IMG/VR virus record: IMGVR_UViG_3300009034_004089
Reading direction: 5' to 3' (one strand)
DNA length: 15,049 nt
Origin: a virus
Taxonomy: Duplodnaviria > Heunggongvirae > Uroviricota > Caudoviricetes
Below, one piece after another: positions 1 through 15,049 of the stretch (the stretch's first letter is position 1; every line of letters begins with the position of its first letter). Under the pieces are notes generated by a model, which saw only the letters and a program-made list of their open reading frames with translations, ran no database searches and was not told the DNA's origin. The position numbers were made by a program, and so were the translations under genes.

Positions 1-1284
1 TTACAGACTTCTGGAAGGTTGCGCAGCTCTTACAACACGCGGTTGATCTTCCGCAGCGTCTTCCAGCGCACTTAAATCACGGTCTTTCACCTCTGGCATT
101 TTCAGCGCAGAGATTAAACCAATCACTGAATATGCCATGATCATAATGGCGATCGGATACCAGGATTCCGTCATGGTGCAGAAAATACCCGCCAGGATAG
201 GACCAAAACCGGAAGCGATAAGACCACCAATTTCTTTAGAAATAGCCATCCGGGTAAAGCGGTTTTTACAGCCGAACATTTCTGCCATGGTAATGTTTTC
301 CAGAGCAAATAATCCCAGCACCGCACAGTTATGAATCACAATCAGTGCAACCATAATGGTGCTCGGGGCATAGCTTTTATCTACAATGATAGAAAGCATT
401 GGCCATGCCAGCACAATCGCGGAGGTATTCATAATAATATACGGGATCCGGCGACCAATTTTATCGGATAACCAACCAAGGAACGGAATGGTCATAAAGC
501 CGAGAATCGAACTAATCATCAATGCATCTGTTGGAATTGCTTTGTTAAACAATAACGTCTGCACTAAATAGCCTGCAAGGAAAGTCTGAATTAACCCGGA
601 GTTACCCGCCTGACCAAAACGCAGCCCTGTTGCCAGCCAGAAGGATTTGCTCTGGAACATGCTACCAGCAGGTGCAGGTTTTGCTGTGGGTTGGTTGCTG
701 TCATTAACCTTCTCAAAGACCGGGCTTTCTTTCAGATTCATACGTAACCAGATAGCAAAGACCATCACGACAACGCTCGCCAGGAACGGTATACGCCATC
801 CCCACGCCAGCAGTTCCTCTTTACTGAGAATGAAGAACATAAAGGCCCAGATTGCCGTTGCGCTCAAGGTTCCGCAGTTAGTTCCCATAGCTACAAATGA
901 GGAGATAATTCCGCGCTTACCTTTTGGTGCATATTCCGCCAGCATCGTACCGGCACCGGAAATTTCCGCACCTGCACCCAACCCCTGAATAATACGCAGC
1001 GTCACCAGCAAGATGGGGGCAAAAACACCAATCTGTGCATAGGTCGGTAACACACCAATTAAGGTGGTACAGATCCCCATCATGGTGATGGTAATAAAGA
1101 GCACTTTTTTACGCCCTATTCTGTCGCCCATTTTGCCGAAAATAAATGCTCCGACAATACGCGCCACATAACCTGCACCGTAGGTTCCCATTGCCAAAAT
1201 TAACGCCATTGCCGTTGATGATTCAGGAAAAAATATTTCATGAAACACTAACGCTGCGCCGAGCGAATATAACTGGAAATCCAT
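1..1284 (-). CDS. ydfJ: MFS transporter, metabolite:H+ symporter family (ShiA-like); the ORF begins abruptly at the prophage junction, consistent with an N-terminally truncated chromosomal gene
   Basis: 427-aa ORF ending at window base 1 (stop included); MFS-type multi-TM composition with GxxxDRxGRK-like motif (GKMGDRIGRKK); N-terminus (MDFQLYSLGAALVFHEIFFP) aligns from memory to an internal position of ShiA-type transporters, i.e. first TM segment missing; matches my recollection of K-12 YdfJ (pseudogene interrupted by Qin). Confidence 0.8.
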   Translation of the reverse strand: MDFQLYSLGAALVFHEIFFPESSTAMALILAMGTYGAGYVARIVGAFIFGKMGDRIGRKKVLFITITMMGICTTLIGVLPTYAQIGVFAPILLVTLRIIQGLGAGAEISGAGTMLAEYAPKGKRGIISSFVAMGTNCGTLSATAIWAFMFFILSKEELLAWGWRIPFLASVVVMVFAIWLRMNLKESPVFEKVNDSNQPTAKPAPAGSMFQSKSFWLATGLRFGQAGNSGLIQTFLAGYLVQTLLFNKAIPTDALMISSILGFMTIPFLGWLSDKIGRRIPYIIMNTSAIVLAWPMLSIIVDKSYAPSTIMVALIVIHNCAVLGLFALENITMAEMFGCKNRFTRMAISKEIGGLIASGFGPILAGIFCTMTESWYPIAIMIMAYSVIGLISALKMPEVKDRDLSALEDAAEDQPRVVRAAQPSRSL

Positions 1285-1887
1285 AATTCACAGGTGTTTT
1301 TTCCCATCCTGTGGTTCCCTTGGCGTTTTCTAGGTTTTTTCAGATAGTTGCATTTTTTAAAAAGCATCCTGAGTTCGATCTCAGTGTCTATCTGGGGCCT
1401 ATTTCTGTCCCATATATGCCCCAAAAAAACTCCCCAACAGATAAGTGGTTTTTTCATGGATTTATGCGTAAAATCAAGAACGGCTGGAAATCATTCAATA
1501 CACACACTATCGAAAAATTTACCAGCCAACCGCAGCACGTTCTTGCATAAGGCGTGTCTGCGGTTTTTCAACTATTCAGATACATCACTCCCATCACATT
1601 CATTCCTCCGCATCAAAGGCATATAGGCTATATCACCTTGATATTTTTCTTCTTCAGATAAAAACTGTTATCTATGTATACTTTTAAACCCAATCCGTGT
1701 AGAGTCTCTGCATAAGATAGTTTGCAGTTGCCGCTTCAGCTTGCGCCATAAACCGCCTGATTTTTGCTGCCACCTGTTAGCATTCCTGTATACCTGAAAC
1801 GACAATGTTTATCTACGAACTTTAAGAACACCCAAGATAAAAATCGTCAACTATATCATATATAACACATTAATAATTCGAGGCTAT

Positions 1888-2001
1888 ATGAACAGCATAC
1901 TGATAATCACTTCTCTCCTTATCATATTCAGCATTTTTAGTCATGCCCTAATAAAATTAGGGATTGGCATATCCAATAACCCAGACAAAACCGATGTATA
2001 A
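1888..2001 (+). CDS. Candidate small hydrophobic protein (37 aa, one predicted TM helix)
   Basis: ATG at 1888 preceded by GAGG at 1880-1883; translation [37 protein letters not shown], stop TAA 1999-2001; below the 60-aa cutoff of the ORF track; AT-rich intergenic context upstream of ynaE/ydfK. Confidence 0.25.
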
Positions 2002-2069
2002 GTCAACATATTCTGAATCAGACATACAATATCGCAATGAAAATCAATAATATTTTAAGGAATATCTTC

Positions 2070-2303
2070 ATGAAATCAAAAGACACCCTAAAGTGGTTCC
2101 CTGCGCAGCTTCCTGAAGTAAGAATTATCCTAGGGGATGCTGTAGTGGAAGTAGCAAAACAGGGAAGACCTATCAATACCAGAACATTGCTTGATTACAT
2201 TGAAGGAAACATAAAGAAAAAATCATGGCTGGATAACAAAGAATTATTACAAACAGCGATATCAGTTCTTAAAGACAACCAAAATTTAAATGGTAAAATG
2301 TAA
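2070..2303 (+). CDS. ydfK: YnaE/YdfK-family prophage protein (cold-shock-induced in K-12), 77 aa
   Basis: ORF 2037-2303; the MKSKDTLKWFPAQLPEV... portion from the ATG at 2070 matches remembered K-12 YnaE/YdfK over the full length; AAGGA upstream; ynaE (Rac) and ydfK (Qin) paralogues cannot be told apart by eye, ydfK chosen because of the ydfJ neighbour. Confidence 0.8.
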   Translation: MKSKDTLKWFPAQLPEVRIILGDAVVEVAKQGRPINTRTLLDYIEGNIKKKSWLDNKELLQTAISVLKDNQNLNGKM

Positions 2304-2465
2304 TATAATTAACTTACTTTTTTATCATTTTCCACTTTAACAACATTTTGCTCCACTTTTCCACGACCAAACAACTTGAAATCTGGTTAAAATAACACGC
2401 AACACTATTCTTCTTCCTTGAGTCCGCCCGGAACTCGAAAAACAAACCGAGTTAAAGCCATTTTT

Positions 2466-2483
2466 CACAAAATCGATTTTGGG
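2466..2483. promoter_or_regulatory. Near-perfect palindrome CACAAAATCGATTTTGGG (perfect 14-bp core CAAAATCGATTTTG) about 135 bp upstream of pin; candidate recombinase or regulator binding site
   Basis: Seen directly in sequence; AAAA-N4-TTTT architecture loosely resembles hix/gix-type crossover sites of serine invertases, but the match is weak and no partner site was found. Confidence 0.25.
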
Positions 2484-2618
2484 TCTCACCAAAATTACGG
2501 GGTTGCATACGCATTCGTTTATTTTCGAACGTGTACATACAAATATGCACAAAAATAATCAAAATTATTTTCTGAGATGCATTATGATATGAACACCAAT
2601 TTCGTATAGAGTCTCACT

Positions 2619-3209
2619 ATGTCTCGAATTTTTGCTTACTGTCGGATATCAACGCTGGATCAGACCACCGAAAATCAACGCCGGGAAATCGAAAGTGCAG
2701 GTTTTAAAATCAAACCTCAGCAAATAATCGAAGAACACATTAGCGGCTCAGCAGCAACCAGTGAGCGTCCTGGTTTTAACCGGTTGCTTGCTCGCCTGAA
2801 ATGTGGTGATCAATTGATTGTGACAAAATTGGATCGCCTTGGTTGTAATGCAATGGATATCAGGAAAACAGTGGAACAACTGACCGAAACAGGTATCAGA
2901 GTGCATTGCTTAGCATTGGGGGGCATTGACCTGACCAGTCCAACAGGAAAAATGATGATGCAAGTAATTTCAGCAGTCGCTGAATTTGAACGAGACCTTT
3001 TACTTGAACGCACTCATTCCGGGATAGTAAGAGCCCGCGGCGCAGGGAAACGTTTTGGTCGACCACCTGTGTTAAATGAAGAACAGAAACAGGTGGTATT
3101 CGAACGAATTAAGTCAGGTGTAAGTATAAGTGCCATTGCCCGGGAATTCAAAACCTCGCGGCAAACCATTTTAAGAGCCAAAGCAAAACTTCAGACACCT
3201 GACATATAA
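2619..3209 (+). CDS. pin: Serine recombinase / DNA invertase of the PinR/PinQ family, 196 aa
   Basis: Full-length ORF; N-terminal catalytic motif YCRISTLDQ with the nucleophilic serine; C-terminal HTH region; matches remembered K-12 PinR/PinQ (the paralogues are near-identical, so which one is not resolvable by eye). Confidence 0.9.
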
Positions 3210-3306
3210 AAAATAATCTCGGTGTGAGATGCTTTACGTCTTCCAAGCCCCCTTCCTTGCCGTAAATGGAAAGATACATCTAATTATAGAATTTATATGT
3301 TTTACC

Positions 3307-3417
3307 CTACGGCAGTGCTGGCCATTCAATATCCTGTGCAGTTGACGTATCAACACGGTTCAGCAATACCCGATACTTTTTCCATGCTTCCAGCAACGAG
3401 GTTTCTTCCTCCGTTGC
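3307..3417 (-). pseudogene. tfa: Tail fibre assembly protein (Tfa) C-terminal remnant, about 36 codons
   Basis: Minus-strand frame reads ...[36 protein letters not shown], matching the C-terminus of K-12 TfaR/TfaQ; upstream in-frame sequence ([17 protein letters not shown]) is unrelated and overlaps the 97-aa gene in another frame, so only the 3' end of tfa survives. Confidence 0.7.
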
Positions 3418-3436
3418 ATATACAGCCCACCTTTTT

Positions 3437-3730
3437 TCACCCACGATTAACCAACAGCCAGACCAGCAGACACGCCACCACCGGCACAGCAAAATCCATC
3501 AGGCTTGCCACATCCCACGCGCGCGGATCAAAACCGCCCCACCACGGCATATTCATTCGCTTGCCATGCCCGAACATTTCAATCCAGCGATATTCTGCCT
3601 GGGTATGTTCACGCGCAATGAAGAACGTACAACCGGCTATCGCTCCGTAAGCCCAGTTTCCGGTAAAAAGACCAACCAGTATCTGCGCAGCCACAGCACA
3701 AAGTGCATGAAGTAAGGGGCTTATATCCAT
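3437..3730 (-). CDS. Hypothetical small integral membrane protein (97 aa, about 3 predicted TM helices)
   Basis: ATG at 3730 preceded by GGAGG with a 5-nt spacer; 12-nt gap to the upstream 92-aa gene; hydrophobic stretches [51 protein letters not shown]; not recognised. Confidence 0.6.
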
Positions 3731-3742
3731 TATTTCCTCCTT

Positions 3743-4021
3743 TCAGCTCCATTCCCGAAGCGGTGTTTCCAGCTCCACGACATAATCAGAGAATACAGAA
3801 ACATCAAACAAGTCATCAAGAATGCGAATGTTGACAAAATAACCGTTATTCCGGATACAGACAGGTTCTCCCTCTTCAGTTACCCCTGTTTCTGTGTAGG
3901 TGAAACCAATTTCATCGACTAACAGTTTATTCTGGAGGTCTTCATCTTCCTCCCAGTCAAGAGATGACAGGAAGGATTTAAACTCTCTGTTACCAGGAAA
4001 TTTCAAAGTTAAATCTTTCAT
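3743..4021 (-). CDS. Hypothetical acidic soluble protein (92 aa)
   Basis: ATG at 4021 overlaps the TGA of the upstream 251-aa ORF (ATGA coupling); AGGAGG directly upstream; acidic composition (DWEEDEDLQ, EEGEP); not recognised. Confidence 0.6.
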   Translation of the reverse strand: MKDLTLKFPGNREFKSFLSSLDWEEDEDLQNKLLVDEIGFTYTETGVTEEGEPVCIRNNGYFVNIRILDDLFDVSVFSDYVVELETPLREWS

Positions 4022-4773
4022 ACTGCCTCCTTGATTTGCCTGTCATTTAATTCTTTAAACCAGACTCTGAAATTTCTGATGTGTCCAAACAAATGACGCG
4101 TTCCTGCTGCGGTCTGCCCACCAAACCGGTACGATGTTGCTGTAACTCCAAATATTTTACCATTAAGGTTTGTTGTATAATTACCATTGCATATTGCATT
4201 TACTGATAAATCAGATTTAGCTCTCACACCCACAATGAACCTTTCTCCATCTGAGGAAATTTGTGGCTGAACCATTCCTACGTTGGCGCTTATCTTTCCT
4301 GTTGAAACAAACCCCAGCGATAAATAATTATCATCAATACTGTGCCCTCCAACATCAAATATCCTTGGCGCAACATTGGGCGGTGTACTCCAGTTCCTCC
4401 TTACTTCGCACAATACTGTAAAAGGCCGTGTTGACAGGTTATTCGCCGAGGGGATAGTAACCACATCACTTGCGCGTGTTGTTGGCATTGTAGTTACAAT
4501 AAATGACGATGCCGTATTGCCCAGTTCAATTTGCGGCGTCGTCATGGTTAATGTTGAGTCATCATAGAATGGCTCATTACTTATTTTATTTGTCATATAA
4601 AAAGCACAGTTAACGGTATCAATGTCCGTATTAGCTGTATAAGTGGCCTCATAGTAGGTCCACTCGCCCTGTTGTTCAGCTTTGGCTGTTATAAGGGATG
4701 TATTACCGCTTACTGTTGCGATCCGGGTATTCGCCTTTATCGGTGTAAAATTCATCTGGCGACATACCGCCAT
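4018..4773 (-). CDS. Hypothetical beta-rich protein (251 aa) with a C-terminal region resembling a LamG/concanavalin-A-like jelly-roll lectin domain; possibly a receptor-binding or adhesin-type module
   Basis: T/N/S/G-rich composition typical of beta-sandwich fibre or lectin domains; C-terminal FGGQTAAGTRHLFGHIRNFRVWFKELNDRQIKEAV resembles the last strands of Laminin_G_3-type domains (pattern recognition only); in-frame stop 3 codons upstream of the ATG; no clear SD; first of three coupled genes. Confidence 0.55.
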   Translation of the reverse strand: MAVCRQMNFTPIKANTRIATVSGNTSLITAKAEQQGEWTYYEATYTANTDIDTVNCAFYMTNKISNEPFYDDSTLTMTTPQIELGNTASSFIVTTMPTTRASDVVTIPSANNLSTRPFTVLCEVRRNWSTPPNVAPRIFDVGGHSIDDNYLSLGFVSTGKISANVGMVQPQISSDGERFIVGVRAKSDLSVNAICNGNYTTNLNGKIFGVTATSYRFGGQTAAGTRHLFGHIRNFRVWFKELNDRQIKEAV

Positions 4774-5098
4774 CCCGAATCAGCTTTGCCCGGGTTTCCC
4801 CCACAATCTGTTTTTGTCTGGTGTAAGGCTGACGCAAAAACCATTCCCTGTAGGTTGTATCTCCGGCCAGAACAATGACCGGAACAGAATCCATTTTGAG
4901 CATTTCAGCCGCCATAACACGACCGTGACCCGCAATAATTTCGCCCTTTTCGTCAATCAGCACCGGATTAGTCCAGCCGAATTGCTTAATACTTTCTACC
5001 AGTTGTGCCACCTGCTCAGTACTGTGCGTCCTGGCGTTGTGCGCATACGGTGACAATTCTTGTAATGGGCGATAGACTATCTTTAATTTCTCGCTCAT
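4703..5098 (-). pseudogene. ynaK: ParB-like nuclease domain protein (YnaK-like), N-terminal ~79 aa conserved then out-of-family tail; truncated at a recombination junction near 4860
   Basis: ORF starts MSEKLKIVYRPLQELSPYAHNARTHSTEQVAQLVESIKQFGWTNPVLIDEKGEIIAGHGRVMAAEMLKMDSVPVIVLAG (ParB N-terminal fold with GHGR motif, as I recall K-12 YnaK); the remaining ~50 codons overlap the 251-aa gene in another frame and look non-native. Confidence 0.65.
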
Positions 5099-5117
5099 AC
5101 AGCCTTGCTTTATGAAT

Positions 5118-5150
5118 AAAACGCACCCCAGCAGCCAGTGCTACTGGGGG
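5118..5150 (-). terminator. Candidate intrinsic terminator downstream of trkG
   Basis: Inverted repeat CCCCAG...CTGGGG (5126-5131 / 5145-5150) followed on the minus strand by a T-rich tract (plus-strand AAAA at 5118-5121). Confidence 0.35.
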
Positions 5151-5235
5151 CGGAGGTGTTGCTGGTAAAGTTAGGTATTGGATCAATGAGTGAGTCAATA
5201 TAATATTAAACTCACAATTATAAATCAGCCATATA

Positions 5236-6693
5236 TTAGGAGCGCCAAAAAAAACCTGAAAACAATATAATAACAGGATAAATTTCAAGGCGACCAAGAA
5301 TCATAGCTATGCACATTAAATATTTTGCAATGTCATTAAGCACTCCGAATGACGATGCAGTAGCCCCAAAACCTAATCCCATATTATTAATACATGCAGC
5401 CACTGTTGCAAATGATGTAAGAAAATCATATCCCATACCATTTAACACCAGTATAAAAAACACCGTGAAGAGAGTATAAAGAAAAAAGAAACTCCATACA
5501 GACCTCATTACACGATCTGTAACTATCTTCCCTCCTACATTTACACTCAACAACGCTCTGGGATGAGAAAGCTGATTTATCTCGTGTTTGCTTTGTTTGA
5601 AAAGTATAAGAAATCGAAGTGACTTAATTCCACCACAAGTTGAACCTATACATCCCCCAAAGAAACTTGACGACAGCAAAAACACTATCGTGTGCGTGGG
5701 CCAGCTTGCATAATCCTGCGTAGCTAAACCATTATCAGTGAGCATGGAGCTGGCAAGAAAAAACGAATGAATAAAACTTCCATGCAAGTCATACATACCT
5801 ATATGCCAGACCTGGAAAGAGGTAACAATGATCACCCCTAAGGCTATTAACAGAAAGAAACGAAGTTCAATATCTCTGATTAAAGGTTTTATCGTTTTCC
5901 TGCTAATAACAATATACCAAAGAGTGAAGTTGAAAGCCGATAGCAGGGAAAAAGAACCAGCCACCAGCTCAACCAAATAGTTATTAAAATATCCGATACT
6001 CTCGCTATGAGTTGAGAAACCACCAAGCGAAACTGTGGAAATCCCGTGACAAATAGCATCAAACAAAGGCATTCCTGCAAGTCTATAACAGACAATACAA
6101 GCAATACCTAATAAAGAATAAGTTATCCACAGTGTCCGTGACGTATCGGCCAGGCGGGGAGTGAGTTTGTCATCCTTAAATGGCCCCGGCATTTCTGACT
6201 GATAAAGCTTTGCACCACCAATACCCAATAATGGCAATACAGCAACCGCCAGAACAATAACTCCTAAACCACCTATAAAATTTAACTGTGACCGATAGTA
6301 CAAATATGCCCGAGGTAATGAACTAACATCATCAATTACAGTTGCTCCTGTTGTTGTTATTCCAGAAACCCCTTCAAACAGAGCATCAATGAACGTTAAA
6401 TTAAGTTCTGAGTCAATCCATAAAGGGAATGCACTAATAACAGAAAACAAAATCCAAAACATTACAATTATAATAAACCCATCACGGGTACGTAATTGAA
6501 TGCCAGATTTCTTAGTTGTATACCACGCTCCGCCACCAATGCAAAAAAATATAACGAAAGTTATAAAGAAAACGAATAGGCTTTTTTCTTTATAAAACAA
6601 TGCTACAACCATTGGTGGCAACATTGAAAGACTATAGAGCCAAACCAGGAACCCACACATATGAGTAACAACTCTTACATGAGATGTATTCAT
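5236..6693 (-). CDS. trkG: Trk-system potassium uptake protein TrkG (485 aa)
   Basis: Translation from the ATG at 6693 (MNTSHVRVVTHMCGFLVWLYSL...) matches remembered K-12 TrkG end to end; multi-TM TrkH/TrkG family; conspicuously AT-rich; the track ORF begins 6 codons earlier at a TTG. Confidence 0.9.
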   Translation of the reverse strand: MNTSHVRVVTHMCGFLVWLYSLSMLPPMVVALFYKEKSLFVFFITFVIFFCIGGGAWYTTKKSGIQLRTRDGFIIIVMFWILFSVISAFPLWIDSELNLTFIDALFEGVSGITTTGATVIDDVSSLPRAYLYYRSQLNFIGGLGVIVLAVAVLPLLGIGGAKLYQSEMPGPFKDDKLTPRLADTSRTLWITYSLLGIACIVCYRLAGMPLFDAICHGISTVSLGGFSTHSESIGYFNNYLVELVAGSFSLLSAFNFTLWYIVISRKTIKPLIRDIELRFFLLIALGVIIVTSFQVWHIGMYDLHGSFIHSFFLASSMLTDNGLATQDYASWPTHTIVFLLSSSFFGGCIGSTCGGIKSLRFLILFKQSKHEINQLSHPRALLSVNVGGKIVTDRVMRSVWSFFFLYTLFTVFFILVLNGMGYDFLTSFATVAACINNMGLGFGATASSFGVLNDIAKYLMCIAMILGRLEIYPVIILFSGFFWRS

Positions 6694-6830
6694 ATCTAAA
6701 TATTCTTTCAATTATAACCACCTTGCTGCAATATTATGATTATACTGTATAAAATTTAACTCCTCTTAGATCTTACTTCACTGTTCCTTATGAAACAATC
6801 ATCAAAATGAATCATATTGTAGTTAAGATT

Positions 6831-7660
6831 TTACTTTAAACACTGTTCGGTTATGTATTGCTGAGCACCTTCAAGTTGGGCCTGCATCATTACCAGTCGT
6901 TCCCGGAGGGTGAAATAATCCCGTTCAGCGGTGTCTGCCAGTCGGGGGGAGGCTGCATTATCCACGCCGGAGGCGGTGGTGGCTTCACGCACTGACTGAC
7001 AGACTGCTTTGATGTGCAACCGACGACGACCAGCGGCAACATCATCACGCAGAGCATCATTTTCAGCTTTAGCATCAGCTAACTCCTTCGTGTATTTTGC
7101 ATCGAGCGCAGCAACATCACGCTGACGCATCTGCATGTCAGTAATTGCCGCGTTCGCCAGCTTCAGTTCTCTGGCATTTTTGTCGCGCTGGGCTTTGTAG
7201 GTAATGGCGTTATCACGGTAATGATTAACAGCCCATGACAGGCAGACGATGATGCAGATAACCAGAGCNNNNNNNNNNNNNNNNNNNNNNNNNNNNNNNN
7301 NNNNNNNNNNNNNNNNNNNNNNNNNNNNNNNNNNNNNNNNNNNNNNNNNNNNNNNNNNNNNNNNNNNNNNNNNNNNNNNNNNNNNNNNNNNNNNNNNNNN
7401 NNNNNNNNNNNNNNNNNNNNNNNNNNNNNNNNNNNNGCATCAGCTAACTCCTTCGTGTATTTTGCATCGAGCGCAGCAACATCACGCTGACGCATCTGCA
7501 TGTCAGTAATTGCCGCGTTCGCCAGCTTCAGTTCTCTGGCATTTTTGTCGCGCTGCTCTTTGTAGGCGGTGGCGTTATCACGGTAATGATTAACAGCCCA
7601 TGACAGGCAGACGATGATGCAGATAACCAGAGCATAAATAATCGCGGCGACTCTGCTCAC
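6831..7660 (-). CDS. Rz (i-spanin, inner-membrane spanin subunit); annotated span is inflated by a 168-N gap plus a 197-bp duplicated overlap; the true gene is about 465 nt
   Basis: N-terminal part (7660 down to 7437, probable GTG start overlapping the endolysin stop) reads [74 protein letters not shown]; C-terminal part (7136 down to 6831) reads [48 protein letters not shown]...EQCLK; resembles K-12 RzpD/RzpR. Confidence 0.75.
6890..7075 (-). CDS. Rz1 (o-spanin, outer-membrane lipoprotein spanin subunit), 61 aa, embedded in the +1 frame of Rz
   Basis: [26 protein letters not shown]... with lipobox LVVVGC and proline-rich tract [15 protein letters not shown]; classic embedded Rz1 architecture. 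Confidence 0.8.
7072..7268. repeat. Copy A of a 197-bp duplicated Rz segment abutting the N-gap (5 mismatches versus copy B)
   Basis: 7072-7268 aligns base for base with 7437-7633 except GGctttgtaggTAA versus CTctttgtaggCGG; ends exactly at the first N. Confidence 0.9.
7269..7436. other. Run of 168 N (scaffold gap)
   Basis: Literal N characters in the sequence; flanked on both sides by overlapping near-identical sequence, the signature of un-merged contig ends. Confidence 0.95.
7437..7633. repeat. Copy B of the 197-bp duplicated Rz segment, starting immediately after the N-gap
   Basis: See copy A; begins exactly at the first base after the N-run. Confidence 0.9.
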
Positions 7661-8878: not shown

Positions 8879-9093
8879 TGAATTACTCTCCCCGTGCAGC
8901 CTTACGCTTATCTTCTTTAATCTTGAAATAAAGATTTGTCAGATACGTCAACAGGCCAAACACCAGACTACCCAGCACACCTATTGCTGCCCACTGTGAG
9001 GGCGTGACTCTATCGAGCAACTGTAAAAACCAGTAGCCAGCACTGCCTGCGGAGGTGCCATAGGCGACACCCGGCGTTAAGGGGAGAGATAAG
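8879..9093. promoter_or_regulatory. Divergent intergenic region expected to carry the leftward-early (pL-like) promoter for ydaG-ydaF and the promoter of the 114-aa gene; contains the inverted repeat AATCTT-N6-AAGATT at 8919-8936
   Basis: 215 bp without a plausible ORF between two divergent genes that both carry GGGGAGAG-type SDs; the inverted repeat was seen directly; no confident -35/-10 call. Confidence 0.3.
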
Positions 9094-9228
9094 ATGGTGC
9101 ATTACGAAGTAGTTCAGTATTTGATGGATTGTTGCGGTATCACTTACAGCCCGGCTGTGCAGGCTTTACGTAGCAACGACTGGGATCTCTGGCAAGCAGA
9201 AGCCTCTATCCGCAACAACAAGATGTGA
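9094..9228 (+). CDS. ydaG: Rac prophage small protein YdaG (44 aa)
   Basis: ATG at 9094 preceded by AAGGGGAGAG; translation [44 protein letters not shown]; size and position (upstream of ydaF, flanking sieB) match K-12 Rac; below the ORF-track cutoff. Confidence 0.6.
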
Positions 9229-10320: not shown

Positions 10321-10542
10321 ATGATTGCACATCACTTCGGAACTGATGAAATACCACGTCAGTGTGTGACTCCTGGCGATTATGTTCTTCATGAAGGCCG
10401 GACATATATTGCCTCGGCAAACAATATTAAAAAGCGAAAACTATATATTCGTAACCTGACCACAAAAACATGCATTACTGACCGCATGATTAAAGTCTTC
10501 CTCGGTCGTGATGGTTTACCTGTAAAGGCGGAGTCATGGTGA
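10321..10542 (+). CDS. kilR: KilR, Rac prophage killing protein (FtsZ-directed division inhibitor in K-12), 73 aa
   Basis: [73 protein letters not shown] matches remembered K-12 KilR; GGAGA SD 5 nt upstream of the ATG at 10321 (the track ORF starts 4 codons earlier at 10309). Confidence 0.85.
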
Positions 10543-10786: not shown

Positions 10787-11062
10787 ATGATTACCAATTA
10801 TGAAGCCACTGTTGTAACTACCGATGACATTGTTCACGAGGTGAATCTGGAAGGAAAGCGCATTGGCTACGTAATTAAAACAGAAAATAAAGAAACCCCA
10901 TTCACTGTGGTTGATATCGATGGTCCATCAGGCAACGTAAAAACACTTGATGAAGGTGTCAAAAAAATGTGCCTGGTGCATATCGGAAAGAATCTGCCCG
11001 CAGAAAAAAAAGCCGAATTTCTGGCAACTCTAATTGCAATGAAATTAAAAGGTGAAATCTGA
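10787..11062 (+). CDS. racC: RacC (Rac prophage protein), 91 aa
   Basis: MITNYEATVVTTDDIVHEVNLEGKRIGYVIKTENKETPFTVVDIDGPSGNVKTLDEGVKKMCLVHIGKNLPAEKKAEFLATLIAMKLKGEI from the ATG at 10787, with AAGGAG 6 nt upstream; matches remembered K-12 RacC. Confidence 0.85.
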   Translation: MITNYEATVVTTDDIVHEVNLEGKRIGYVIKTENKETPFTVVDIDGPSGNVKTLDEGVKKMCLVHIGKNLPAEKKAEFLATLIAMKLKGEI

Positions 11063-11069
11063 AAGAAAT

Positions 11070-11090
11070 AGCCTGCGTATGGCGCAGGCT
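11070..11090 (+). promoter_or_regulatory. Short hairpin (8-bp stem AGCCTGCG / CGCAGGCT, 5-nt loop) between racC and recE; possible attenuator or processing site, not followed by a T-run
   Basis: Seen directly; lies in the racC-recE spacer, the region where K-12 sbcA-type activation of recE is known to map (established knowledge, not verified here). Confidence 0.25.
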
Positions 11091-11163
11091 ATGAACAGTG
11101 TGTATCCGGCAAGATCATTCACTGAACAAAACGAATTTTAATCTGAGTTGAGGTTAAAAAACA

Positions 11164-11439
11164 ATGAGCACAAAACCACTCTTCCTGTTACGGAAAGCGA
11201 AAAAATCATCCGGTGAACCTGACGTCGTCCTGTGGGCAAGCAACGATTTTGAATCGACCTGTGCCACTCTGGACTACCTGATCGTTAAGTCAGGTAAAAA
11301 ACTGAGCAGCTATTTTAAAGCTGTTGCCACGAATTTTCCTGTCGTTAATGACCTGCCCGCTGAAGGTGAGATCGATTTTACCTGGAGTGAACGCTATCAA
11401 CTCAGCAAAGACTCCATGACATGGGAACTAAAATCGTAG
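11164..11439 (+). pseudogene. recE: recE 5' fragment (first about 90 codons of exonuclease VIII) terminated after an internal out-of-frame deletion
   Basis: [90 protein letters not shown] matches the RecE N-terminus; reading frame ends at TAG 11437-11439 right after the deletion junction. Confidence 0.8.
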
Positions 11440-12263
11440 AAGACATAGAGCCAGGTATTTATTACGGAATTTCGAATGAGAATTACCACGCGGGTCCCGG
11501 TATCAGTAAGTCTCAGCTCGATGACATTGCTGATACTCCGGCACTATATTTGTGGCGTAAAAATGCCCCCGTGGACACCACAAAGACAAAAACGCTCGAT
11601 TTAGGAACTGCTTTCCACTGCCGGGTACTTGAACCGGAAGAATTCAGTAACCGCTTTATCGTAGCACCTGAATTTAACCGCCGTACAAACGCCGGAAAAG
11701 AAGAAGAGAAAGCGTTTCTGATGGAATGCGCAAGCACAGGAAAAACGGTTATCACTGCGGAAGAAGGCCGGAAAATTGAACTCATGTATCAAAGCGTTAT
11801 GGCTTTGCCGCTGGGGCAATGGCTTGTTGAAAGCGCCGGACACGCTGAATCATCAATTTACTGGGAAGATCCTGAAACAGGAATTTTGTGTCGGTGCCGT
11901 CCGGACAAAATTATCCCTGAATTTCACTGGATCATGGACGTGAAAACTACGGCGGATATTCAACGATTCAAAACCGCTTATTACGACTACCGCTATCACG
12001 TTCAGGATGCATTCTACAGTGACGGTTATGAAGCACAGTTTGGAGTGCAGCCAACTTTCGTTTTTCTGGTTGCCAGCACAACTATTGAATGCGGACGTTA
12101 TCCGGTTGAAATTTTCATGATGGGCGAAGAAGCAAAACTGGCAGGTCAACAGGAATATCACCGCAATCTGCGAACCCTGTCTGACTGCCTGAATACCGAT
12201 GAATGGCCAGCTATTAAGACATTATCACTACCCCGCTGGGCTAAGGAATATGCAAATGACTAA
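11421..12263 (+). CDS. recE: RecE C-terminal nuclease domain (280-aa ORF; 5'-3' dsDNA exonuclease core of exonuclease VIII)
   Basis: From [31 protein letters not shown]... to ...[11 protein letters not shown] the translation matches the C-terminal about 276 aa of K-12 RecE; the ATG at 11421 is created at the junction in a frame shifted relative to the N-terminal stub; no SD by eye; 3' end overlaps the recT start as in K-12. Confidence 0.8.
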
Positions 12264-13596: not shown

Positions 13597-13812
13597 ATGG
13601 CACAAGTAATCTTTAATGAAGAGTGGATGGTTGAATACGGCCTGATGCTTCGCACTGGTCTGGGGGCCAGACAAATTGAAGCATACCGCCAGAACTGTTG
13701 GGTGGAGGGCTTCCACTTCAAACGAGTATCTCCTTTAGGTAAGCCAGACAGCAAACGAGGGATTATCTGGTACAACTATCCAAAGATAAATCAGTTTATC
13801 AAAGACTCATGA
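13597..13812 (+). CDS. xisR: Excisionase (XisR / YdaQ), 71 aa
   Basis: [71 protein letters not shown]; GAGGTGA SD; stop abuts the int ATG (TGATATG); the track ORF begins 8 codons upstream at a TTG. Confidence 0.8.
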
Positions 13813-13813
13813 T

Positions 13814-15049
13814 ATGTCTAAATTACCAACAGGTGTCGAGATTAGAGGTAGATACATTCGCATCTGGTTCATGTTTCGAGGAAAACGATGTCGGGAAACA
13901 TTAAAAGGCTGGGAGATTACAAACAGTAATATTAAAAAGGCCGGAAATTTAAGATCGCTGATAGTTCATGAAATAAACTCCGGTGAATTTGAGTATTTAA
14001 GACGTTTTCCCCAGTCCAGCACTGGGGCAAAAATGGTGACAACGAGAGTCATAAAAACGTTCGGAGAGCTTTGTGATATCTGGACAAAAATTAAAGAGAC
14101 AGAGTTAACAACAAACACAATGAAGAAAACGAAATCACAATTAAAAACACTCAGAATAATAATTTGTGAAAGTACCCCGATATCACATATTCGTTATAGC
14201 GATATCTTAAACTACCGGAATGAACTGCTGCATGGAGAAACGCTTTACCTGGATAATCCAAGATCCAACAAAAAAGGAAGAACCGTGCGCACAGTTGATA
14301 ACTATATCGCCCTGCTCTGTTCGCTGTTGCGTTTTGCGTATCAGTCGGGATTTATATCAACTAAACCATTTGAAGGAGTAAAAAAATTACAGCGAAACAG
14401 AATAAAGCCTGATCCGTTATCTAAAACAGAATTCAATGCATTAATGGAAAGTGAAAAAGGACAGAGCCAGAACTTGTGGAAATTTGCCGTTTACTCAGGA
14501 CTTCGTCACGGGGAACTGGCAGCTCTGGCGTGGGAGGATGTGGATCTCGAAAAGGGAATAGTGAATGTCAGAAGAAACCTGACGATACTTGATATGTTCG
14601 GTCCCCCAAAAACAAATGCCGGGATCCGAACAGTAACACTACTGCAGCCTGCTCTTGAAGCACTGAAGGAGCAATACAAACTGACCGGGCATCATCGCAA
14701 AAGCGAAATCACCTTTTATCATCGGGAGTACGGCAGAACCGAAAAGCAAAAACTGCATTTTGTTTTCATGCCCAGGGTGTGTAACGGAAAACAAAAACCT
14801 TATTACTCGGTAAGCAGTTTGGGGGCAAGGTGGAATGCAGCAGTAAAACGTGCTGGTATTCGCCGCCGTAATCCGTACCATACGCGGCATACTTTTGCCT
14901 GCTGGCTGTTGACGGCAGGAGCGAACCCGGCATTTATAGCCAGCCAAATGGGGCATGAAACTGCGCAGATGGTGTATGAAATTTACGGTATGTGGATTGA
15001 TGACATGAACGACGAACAGATAGCCATGTTGAATGCGCGGTTATCGTAG
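13814..15049 (+). CDS. intR: Tyrosine site-specific integrase, Rac IntR type (411 aa, complete; stop is the last codon of the window)
   Basis: Full-length ORF with the C-terminal catalytic region of tyrosine recombinases (…RNPYHTRHTFACWLLTAGANPAFIASQMGHETAQMVYEIYGMW…); matches remembered K-12 IntR; xis-int arrangement. Confidence 0.9.
   Translation: MSKLPTGVEIRGRYIRIWFMFRGKRCRETLKGWEITNSNIKKAGNLRSLIVHEINSGEFEYLRRFPQSSTGAKMVTTRVIKTFGELCDIWTKIKETELTTNTMKKTKSQLKTLRIIICESTPISHIRYSDILNYRNELLHGETLYLDNPRSNKKGRTVRTVDNYIALLCSLLRFAYQSGFISTKPFEGVKKLQRNRIKPDPLSKTEFNALMESEKGQSQNLWKFAVYSGLRHGELAALAWEDVDLEKGIVNVRRNLTILDMFGPPKTNAGIRTVTLLQPALEALKEQYKLTGHHRKSEITFYHREYGRTEKQKLHFVFMPRVCNGKQKPYYSVSSLGARWNAAVKRAGIRRRNPYHTRHTFACWLLTAGANPAFIASQMGHETAQMVYEIYGMWIDDMNDEQIAMLNARLS

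Follow-up and report, generated by a model that had tools for sequence, protein, structure and literature searches.

A recE pseudogene in the Rac prophage of the BL21 lineage, most probably left by a single 1501-bp laboratory deletion

The window analysed here, a stretch of 15,049 nucleotides held as a Caudoviricetes sequence in IMG/VR (IMGVR_UViG_3300009034_004089), carries the left arm of the Rac prophage on its + strand. The genes kilR, ydaE, racC, two pieces of recE, recT, ralR, rcbA, xisR and intR follow one another in that order (Table 1). The intact Rac recE locus has the same neighbours (kilR-ydaE-racC-recE-recT-ralR-rcbA-xisR-intR) and the same 8-nt overlap between recE and recT, and the sequence that the window keeps is identical to it. 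The recE region of the window was 100% identical to that of BL21. An earlier annotation, made from the sequence alone and called the first-pass annotation below, described recE as carrying an internal out-of-frame deletion of roughly 1.5 kb next to an intact recT. The recT part of this description was confirmed, as the accession for its product is the same in the window, K-12 and REL606. The piece of recE that encodes the nuclease domain lies directly upstream of recT, with stop and start overlapping.

Table 1. Features of the recE-recT segment and its neighbours (positions in the window)
Feature	Position	Strand	Remarks
kilR	10321-10542	+	
racC	10787..11062	+	intact; directly upstream of recE, same operon; SD -9.2 kcal/mol
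recE 5' remnant	11164..11439	+	90 native RecE codons (1-90), a new Ser codon and TAG; WP_024181909.1
Nuclease-domain ORF, 280 aa	11421..12263	+	MGTK + RecE 591-866; RefSeq pseudogene fragment ('missing N-terminus')
Overlap of ORF and stub, 19 nt (ATGGGAACTAAAATCGTAG)	11421..11439	+	from the ATG of the nuclease ORF to the TAG of the stub
Deletion junction	11432..11433	.	base-by-base extension against ATCC 11303 recE and blastn, 100% identical flanks
recT, 269 aa	12256..13065	+	intact; WP_000166319.1; own SD (AAGGAA); overlaps the recE end by 8 nt
intR	13814-15049	+	

The extent of the deletion was determined against the recE gene of E. coli B ATCC 11303 (2601 bp, 866 aa). In a base-by-base alignment, 270 nt at the start of this gene and 832 nt at its end were identical in the window, and exactly 1501 bp between them were absent from it. 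The missing segment comprises recE nt 271-1771, that is, RecE codons 91-590 and one additional base, and the reading frame is thereby broken. The flanks of the deletion, 3997 bp on the left and 3618 bp on the right, were 100% identical to ATCC 11303 by blastn. The matched runs at the two endpoints overlap by 2 nt, and the AA dinucleotide of the junction was the sole sequence common to both ends when repeats and microhomology were sought there. A junction ambiguity of at least 2 nt is expected by chance in about 16% of random junctions. Therefore, the shared AA does not amount to meaningful microhomology, and the junction is effectively non-homologous. Since 1501 equals 3 x 500 + 1, the frame is shifted and translation that begins at the native start meets a stop codon after 91 codons, so that no continuous frame leads from that start into the nuclease domain. 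The out-of-frame deletion of the first-pass annotation is thus fixed in size and endpoints, and both recE pieces were found where that annotation had placed them, with its description of the reading frames borne out in full.

The 5' remnant corresponds to the 90-codon stub with an early stop that had been described from the sequence alone. Its product begins with MSTKPLF and matches positions 1-89 of the 203 positions of PF06630 (Exonuc_VIII) with E=1e-58, and RefSeq names it 'RecE family exodeoxyribonuclease'. The stub keeps the native SD of recE, for which the anti-SD duplex was calculated at -6.7 kcal/mol.

The second piece is a stand-alone ORF for the C-terminal nuclease domain, as the first-pass annotation had claimed. 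Residues 5-280 of this ORF are RecE residues 591-866, in agreement with the start at about residue 590 given there. The four leading residues, MGTK, are an out-of-frame reading of recE nt 258-269. The 'new ATG' at 11421 therefore does head the 280-aa ORF; it is not new DNA, being a pre-existing out-of-frame ATG of recE (nt 258-260, codons 86-87) that the deletion put in frame. The ORF product matches PF12684 (PDDEXK-like) with E=3e-29 and PDB 3H4R, the crystallised RecE 606-866, across the whole length of the latter with one substitution (E=3e-182). None of the catalytic residues (H652, D748, D759 and K761) is missing, and they are invariant in the 10-11 aligned homologues. The ORF thus holds a complete C-terminal PD-(D/E)XK nuclease domain of the RecE/PF12684 family. 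Its product, if expressed, could very likely work, as judged from RecE588 and the natural stand-alone homologues described below.

The distribution of the allele was examined with a 200-bp probe centred on the junction, which was compared with 5426 complete E. coli genomes. The probe was contiguous in 33 of them, and in 32 the match was unbroken and 100% identical. These genomes are without exception BL21, BL21(DE3) or derivatives, including C41/C43, BLR, BL21-AI, BL21-Gold, Rosetta2, T7 Express, NEBExpress, SHuffle C3029, Nico21, BAP1 and B95.deltaA; the 33rd genome carries a different allele. An intact recE (at least 80% coverage) was found in 1623 genomes, among them REL606, ATCC 11303, other B stocks and K-12 (99.9% identity). 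The deletion thus sets BL21 and its derivatives apart from REL606 and other B strains, which lack it. Since the junction is confined to the BL21 lineage and the sister B strains are intact, the lesion is taken to have arisen in the laboratory after the split from the REL606 line. The same distribution speaks against the 'natural minimal RecET module' that the first-pass annotation had offered as one reading.

We considered whether the frameshift might be an artefact of sequencing or assembly and the true gene continuous. The window does bear the signs of a draft assembly, namely 168 consecutive N flanked by near-duplicate copies of 197 bp, and a join of Qin to Rac that occurs in no complete genome. 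Nevertheless, the identical junction recurs in 32 independently sequenced complete genomes, the identical 91-aa stub product and the identical 280-aa ORF product were called on 838 and 766 public contigs, respectively, and 1501 bp are far too many for an indel error. An artefact of this kind has next to no probability, and a sequencing error that hides a continuous recE frame, named in advance as a possible refutation, is excluded by the 32 independent assemblies. The public contigs with the stub and ORF products include metagenome-assembled genomes, and these occurrences probably stem from contamination or from laboratory samples; they show how far BL21 DNA has spread.

A second alternative holds that the allele is a natural polymorphism, either inherited from the wild or acquired by recombination with another Rac-like prophage. 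The recE gene is indeed mosaic in nature, where other prophage 'exonuclease' genes share only nt 306-1765/1772 with it. Moreover, the mink isolate 11PC has an independent short, frameshifted recE, the 3' block of which resumes within 3 nt of the right endpoint in BL21. However, the junction occurred in no genome outside the BL21 lineage among the 5426 complete E. coli genomes, and the sister B strains are intact, with the identical flanks given above and no sign of imported DNA. The 11PC allele also differs from that of BL21 between its blocks and diverges by 1-3%. Taken together, a natural origin of the BL21 allele appears very unlikely.

The 11PC locus deserves a description of its own. Its recE pseudogene (locus L008, 2332-3626) consists of nt 1-297, 165 nt of unrelated sequence and nt 1769-2601, and is frameshifted. 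The short recE of this isolate shows that the middle module of recE is lost or exchanged in nature too. The first residue kept at the right endpoint of the BL21 deletion is I591 (nt 1770-1772), at most 3 nt from the natural mosaic boundary of recE. We know of no selection that would put a laboratory deletion at this boundary. The coincidence of the endpoint with a domain and mosaic boundary was treated as chance, although a random deletion does not explain it.

We consider it highly probable that this region represents the pseudogene form of recE found in the BL21 lineage and that it goes back to one non-homologous laboratory deletion of 1501 bp, most likely linked to UV. A second BL21-lineage deletion in the same prophage, described below, also counts in favour of this explanation. 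UV as the cause is reached through a secondary citation: according to a preprint on the BL21 suf deletion (bioRxiv 10.1101/811059), the 2009 genome analysis brought to light several large deletions confined to the BL21 lineage, for which UV is the presumed cause, citing Table 4 of Studier et al. 2009. The sufA-sufB deletion, which is attributed to UV, resembles the recE deletion in that it occurs only in BL21 and its derivatives and is absent from REL606 (bioRxiv 10.1101/811059). The lesion itself was already known. RefSeq marks the 3' piece of recE as an incomplete pseudogene, and a study that refers to Jeong 2009 and Studier 2009 counts recE among the defective genes of BL21(DE3) and transduced K-12 recE+ into that strain (PMC4158980).

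The sequence of events would then be as follows. In a laboratory ancestor of BL21, after the split from the REL606 line, a single non-homologous deletion would have struck recE in the cryptic Rac prophage, probably as one of the large UV-attributed deletions of this lineage. By the frame shift, translation from the native start is cut off at 91 codons and the nuclease domain (591-866) drops into the frame of the pre-existing ATG, so that the 280-aa ORF is created by accident. In K-12 this operon is silent unless activated by sbcA mutations, and in the B-type Rac prophage racR and the adjacent strong leftward promoter are both gone.

The nuclease-domain ORF closely resembles the known minimal forms of RecE, and the near-coincidence with minimal C-terminal fragments pointed out in the first-pass annotation holds. 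RecE588 consists of the C-terminal 279 residues; it is fully active as a 5' exonuclease and, together with RecT, sustains linear-circular recombination (PMC11257833). The window ORF (RecE 591-866) is 3 residues shorter than RecE588. Compared with the crystallised RecE606-866 (PDB 3H4R), it is 15 residues longer, with the one substitution noted above. The engineered RecE fragments are provided with a promoter and a ribosome-binding site, whereas the window ORF is predicted to have neither and starts with the unrelated MGTK. In the truncation series of Muyrers et al. in 2000, RecE shortened to 595 and 602 reportedly still worked and RecE shortened to 606 did not.

Natural stand-alone homologues of 270-291 aa (PF12684) were 54-65% identical to the window ORF over 95-98% of its length. 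They occur commonly in Hafnia, Edwardsiella, Xenorhabdus, Proteus, Providencia, Aeromonas and others. One such nuclease gene, in a Hafnia paralvei prophage with the order gamL-nuclease-recT, overlaps recT by 8 nt, as in the window. The natural single-domain nucleases share the domain extent and the invariant catalytic residues with the window ORF; however, they are evolved genes in phage early operons, and the window ORF would be an accidental by-product of a laboratory deletion within a gene made up of three modules. With its allele confined to a laboratory lineage, the ORF does not qualify as an evolved stand-alone gene of wild genomes. Judged by its sequence, the remnant is like the natural minimal module in extent and unlike it in origin and in predicted expression signals. 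Homologues of 440-480 aa annotated as 'partial' were also considered as natural short variants and were rejected, being clipped calls of long RecE proteins.

Two further truncated forms of recE may be set beside the remnant. Chu, Templin and Clark are said to have described, in 1989, internal or 5' deletions of recE that keep the C-terminal nuclease and serve as the classical argument that the larger, N-terminal portion of the gene is dispensable. They had been selected for function and lie in frame with an upstream gene that is translated, whereas the BL21 deletion was unselected and is out of frame. In PMC13048471, the study (J Bacteriol 171:2101) is cited for laboratory fusion deletions between racC and 3' recE. 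In the protein P0002 (463 aa, from a Logan assembly), the N-terminus of an MFS transporter continues in frame into the last ~330 residues of RecE, with the join ...GPGNCPDCGAVMGD... in its sequence. This fusion suggests that another strain has a deletion joining a transporter gene to 3' recE, and it is reminiscent of the classical racC-recE fusion suppressors.

The translation signals of the 280-aa ORF were poor. For the 20 nt upstream of the ATG at 11421, the anti-SD duplex reached only -0.9 kcal/mol, compared with -6.7 for the own start of recE, -9.2 for racC and -6.0 kcal/mol for recT. As many as 67% of the + strand ATGs in the window scored as well as or better than this one, and the remark in the first-pass annotation that no SD is obvious there was justified. 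The RNA structure around the ATG was weak (-5.5 kcal/mol over 70 nt). The stub and the ORF overlap out of phase, the stub stop lying 16 nt downstream of the ATG, and this overlap is the only place where termination and reinitiation could occur. Reinitiation in native E. coli gene pairs is described as essentially local, and such pairs overlap by more than about 10 nt some four times less often than by the short 1, 4 or 8 nt (PMC10666635). The nuclease gene of the window thus has neither an SD nor the tight coupling overlap of 1-8 nt. A -1 slip on the A_AAA run (11430-11433; tRNA-Lys) would fuse RecE 1-90 to 591-866 into a product of 366 aa; no slippery heptamer and no stimulatory structure was found beside this A4 run. 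The intR gene likewise has no SD ahead of its start (-0.9 kcal/mol). In contrast to the recE remnant, however, it shows a tight coupling geometry, with its ATG and the stop of xisR overlapping as ATGA (13812-13817).

The transcription signals pointed the same way. No sigma-70-like site was found on the + strand between 8760 and 11421 by a consensus scan, which weak or read-through transcription may escape. Neither the junction nor the stub contained a newly created promoter; the sole match on the + strand, at 11521-11550, comes only after the ATG, and fewer promoter-like matches were counted than expected from shuffled sequence. In K-12, a promoter with 11 of the 12 consensus positions (TTGACA-17-TATAGT), flanked by ATTAGGCAT repeats, lies just downstream of racR and points toward kilR-recET. 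In the B-type Rac prophage, the window included, racR, this promoter and ydaS-ydaV (ydaS, ydaT, ydaU and ydaV) are replaced by lysis genes. A tblastn search with K-12 RacR gave no match in the window, and the homology to K-12 restarts just 28 nt before a small ORF at 9094. The replacing lysis genes are essD, ydfR and lysozyme (window 8883-9094 against K-12 locus L010, 4146-4931). In K-12, it takes sbcA mutations to activate the recET pathway (PMC9504249). From the lack of an SD, the 19-nt overlap, the silent operon and the absence of racR and its promoter, we infer that expression of the 280-aa ORF is unlikely and that its product is most likely not made in useful amounts. As a further consequence of the lesion, recT is probably preceded by ~830 nt of untranslated RNA, which would lower its expression further.

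A perfect hairpin with a 10-bp stem (ATAGCCTGCG-CCATA-CGCAGGCTAT) was observed at 11068-11092, between racC and recE, and it is conserved in K-12. It is terminator-like on the - strand only, where it has a T-rich tail.

These signals bear on the remaining alternative, in which the remnant would act as a functional, if cryptic, minimal RecE(591-866)/RecT module. Translation of the nuclease domain would be achieved by reinitiation at 11421 after the TAG at 11437-11439 or by the -1 slip, and the 280-aa or 366-aa product would be an active 5'-3' exonuclease that works with RecT. In favour of this proposal, the 280-aa ORF contains the whole crystallised nuclease domain with its catalytic residues and is 3 residues shorter than a fragment that is fully exonuclease-active and recombines linear with circular DNA together with RecT (PMC11257833). 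The natural homologues of 270-291 aa start at aligned RecE positions 596-597, and the one in the Hafnia prophage precedes recT with the same 8-nt overlap. In addition, the stub has kept its native SD, only 16 nt separate its stop from the ATG, and the RNA folds weakly there. However, the ATG lacks an SD, the 19-nt overlap exceeds the range that is common natively for local reinitiation (PMC10666635), the A4 run stands without a slippery heptamer or stimulatory structure, no promoter-like site was found upstream, the segment that holds racR and its neighbouring promoter in K-12 is gone, and the allele itself is an accident of a laboratory lineage. We regard such a functional module as unlikely. 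It is likewise improbable, as read from the sequence, that BL21 and its derivatives carry a near-natural single-domain recE (591-866) coupled to recT with low-level translation by reinitiation or a -1 slip. If this improbable reading were true, an sbcA-like promoter insertion would give plasmid-free linear-circular recombineering in BL21, low-level activity might add to RecA-independent rearrangements in this widely used production host, and the position of the right endpoint, at a domain and mosaic boundary, would point to a joint in recE that is prone to recombination.

Of the two readings left by the first-pass annotation, the 'dead gene' is favoured over the natural module because the ORF has no SD, overlaps the stub out of phase by 19 nt, has no upstream promoter-like site and carries a RefSeq pseudogene flag. 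That annotation had also proposed an assay of linear-linear recombination with the recE-recT segment. The assay would be the wrong test, because truncated RecE works in linear-circular recombination and efficient linear-linear recombination needs the full-length protein (PMC11257833 and PMC11611040); a shortened RecE should thus perform badly in it. BL21 hosts, which lack full-length RecE, cannot supply the endogenous activity needed for efficient linear-linear cloning. The biological import of the pseudogene is otherwise small, the lesion being a correctly read one in one of the best-studied laboratory genomes. In practice, BL21-lineage DNA can be recognised by the junction ...GGAACTAAAA|TCGTAGAAG..., which is specific to it and can serve as a strain marker.

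The left end of the window is of a different origin. The window does not correspond over its full length to BL21(DE3) 1397168-1412216, as its left end departs from it: positions 1-2744 are the ydfJ/ynfT/ydfK flank of the Qin prophage and not Rac (BL21(DE3) 1580299 onward, 100% identical over 1-1700). The crossover into Rac lies at 2745-3037, inside a 99%-identical ydfK-pin repeat. Window 1-7268 was contiguous in none of the 5426 complete E. coli genomes. Since the Qin/Rac join was unseen in complete genomes, it points to either a ~170-kb Rac/Qin inversion or a scaffold misjoin. Farther to the right, the run of 168 N (7269-7436) lies between near-duplicate copies of 197 bp with 5 mismatches (7072-7268 and 7437-7633), and the N run and the duplicate add 365 bp that are missing from BL21(DE3) and ATCC 11303. 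The segment 7071-7633 looks like a draft-assembly gap in the Rz/lysis-gene repeat.

A second BL21-lineage deletion was observed at window 4729/4730, 6.7 kb away from the recE junction in the same prophage. It comprises 2544 bp with a junction ambiguity of 2 nt. Compared with REL606 and ATCC 11303, the DUF6651 gene is lost entirely, and the Rac tail-fibre gene lacks its 5' two-thirds. A reading of this deletion as an in-frame gene fusion was rejected, as the coordinates show that the DUF6651 gene and the 5' part of the tail-fibre gene were removed. Among the matches listed, the 4729/4730 junction was contiguous only in genomes of the BL21 lineage. Two BL21-lineage deletions in one prophage of ~20 kb may represent an enrichment.
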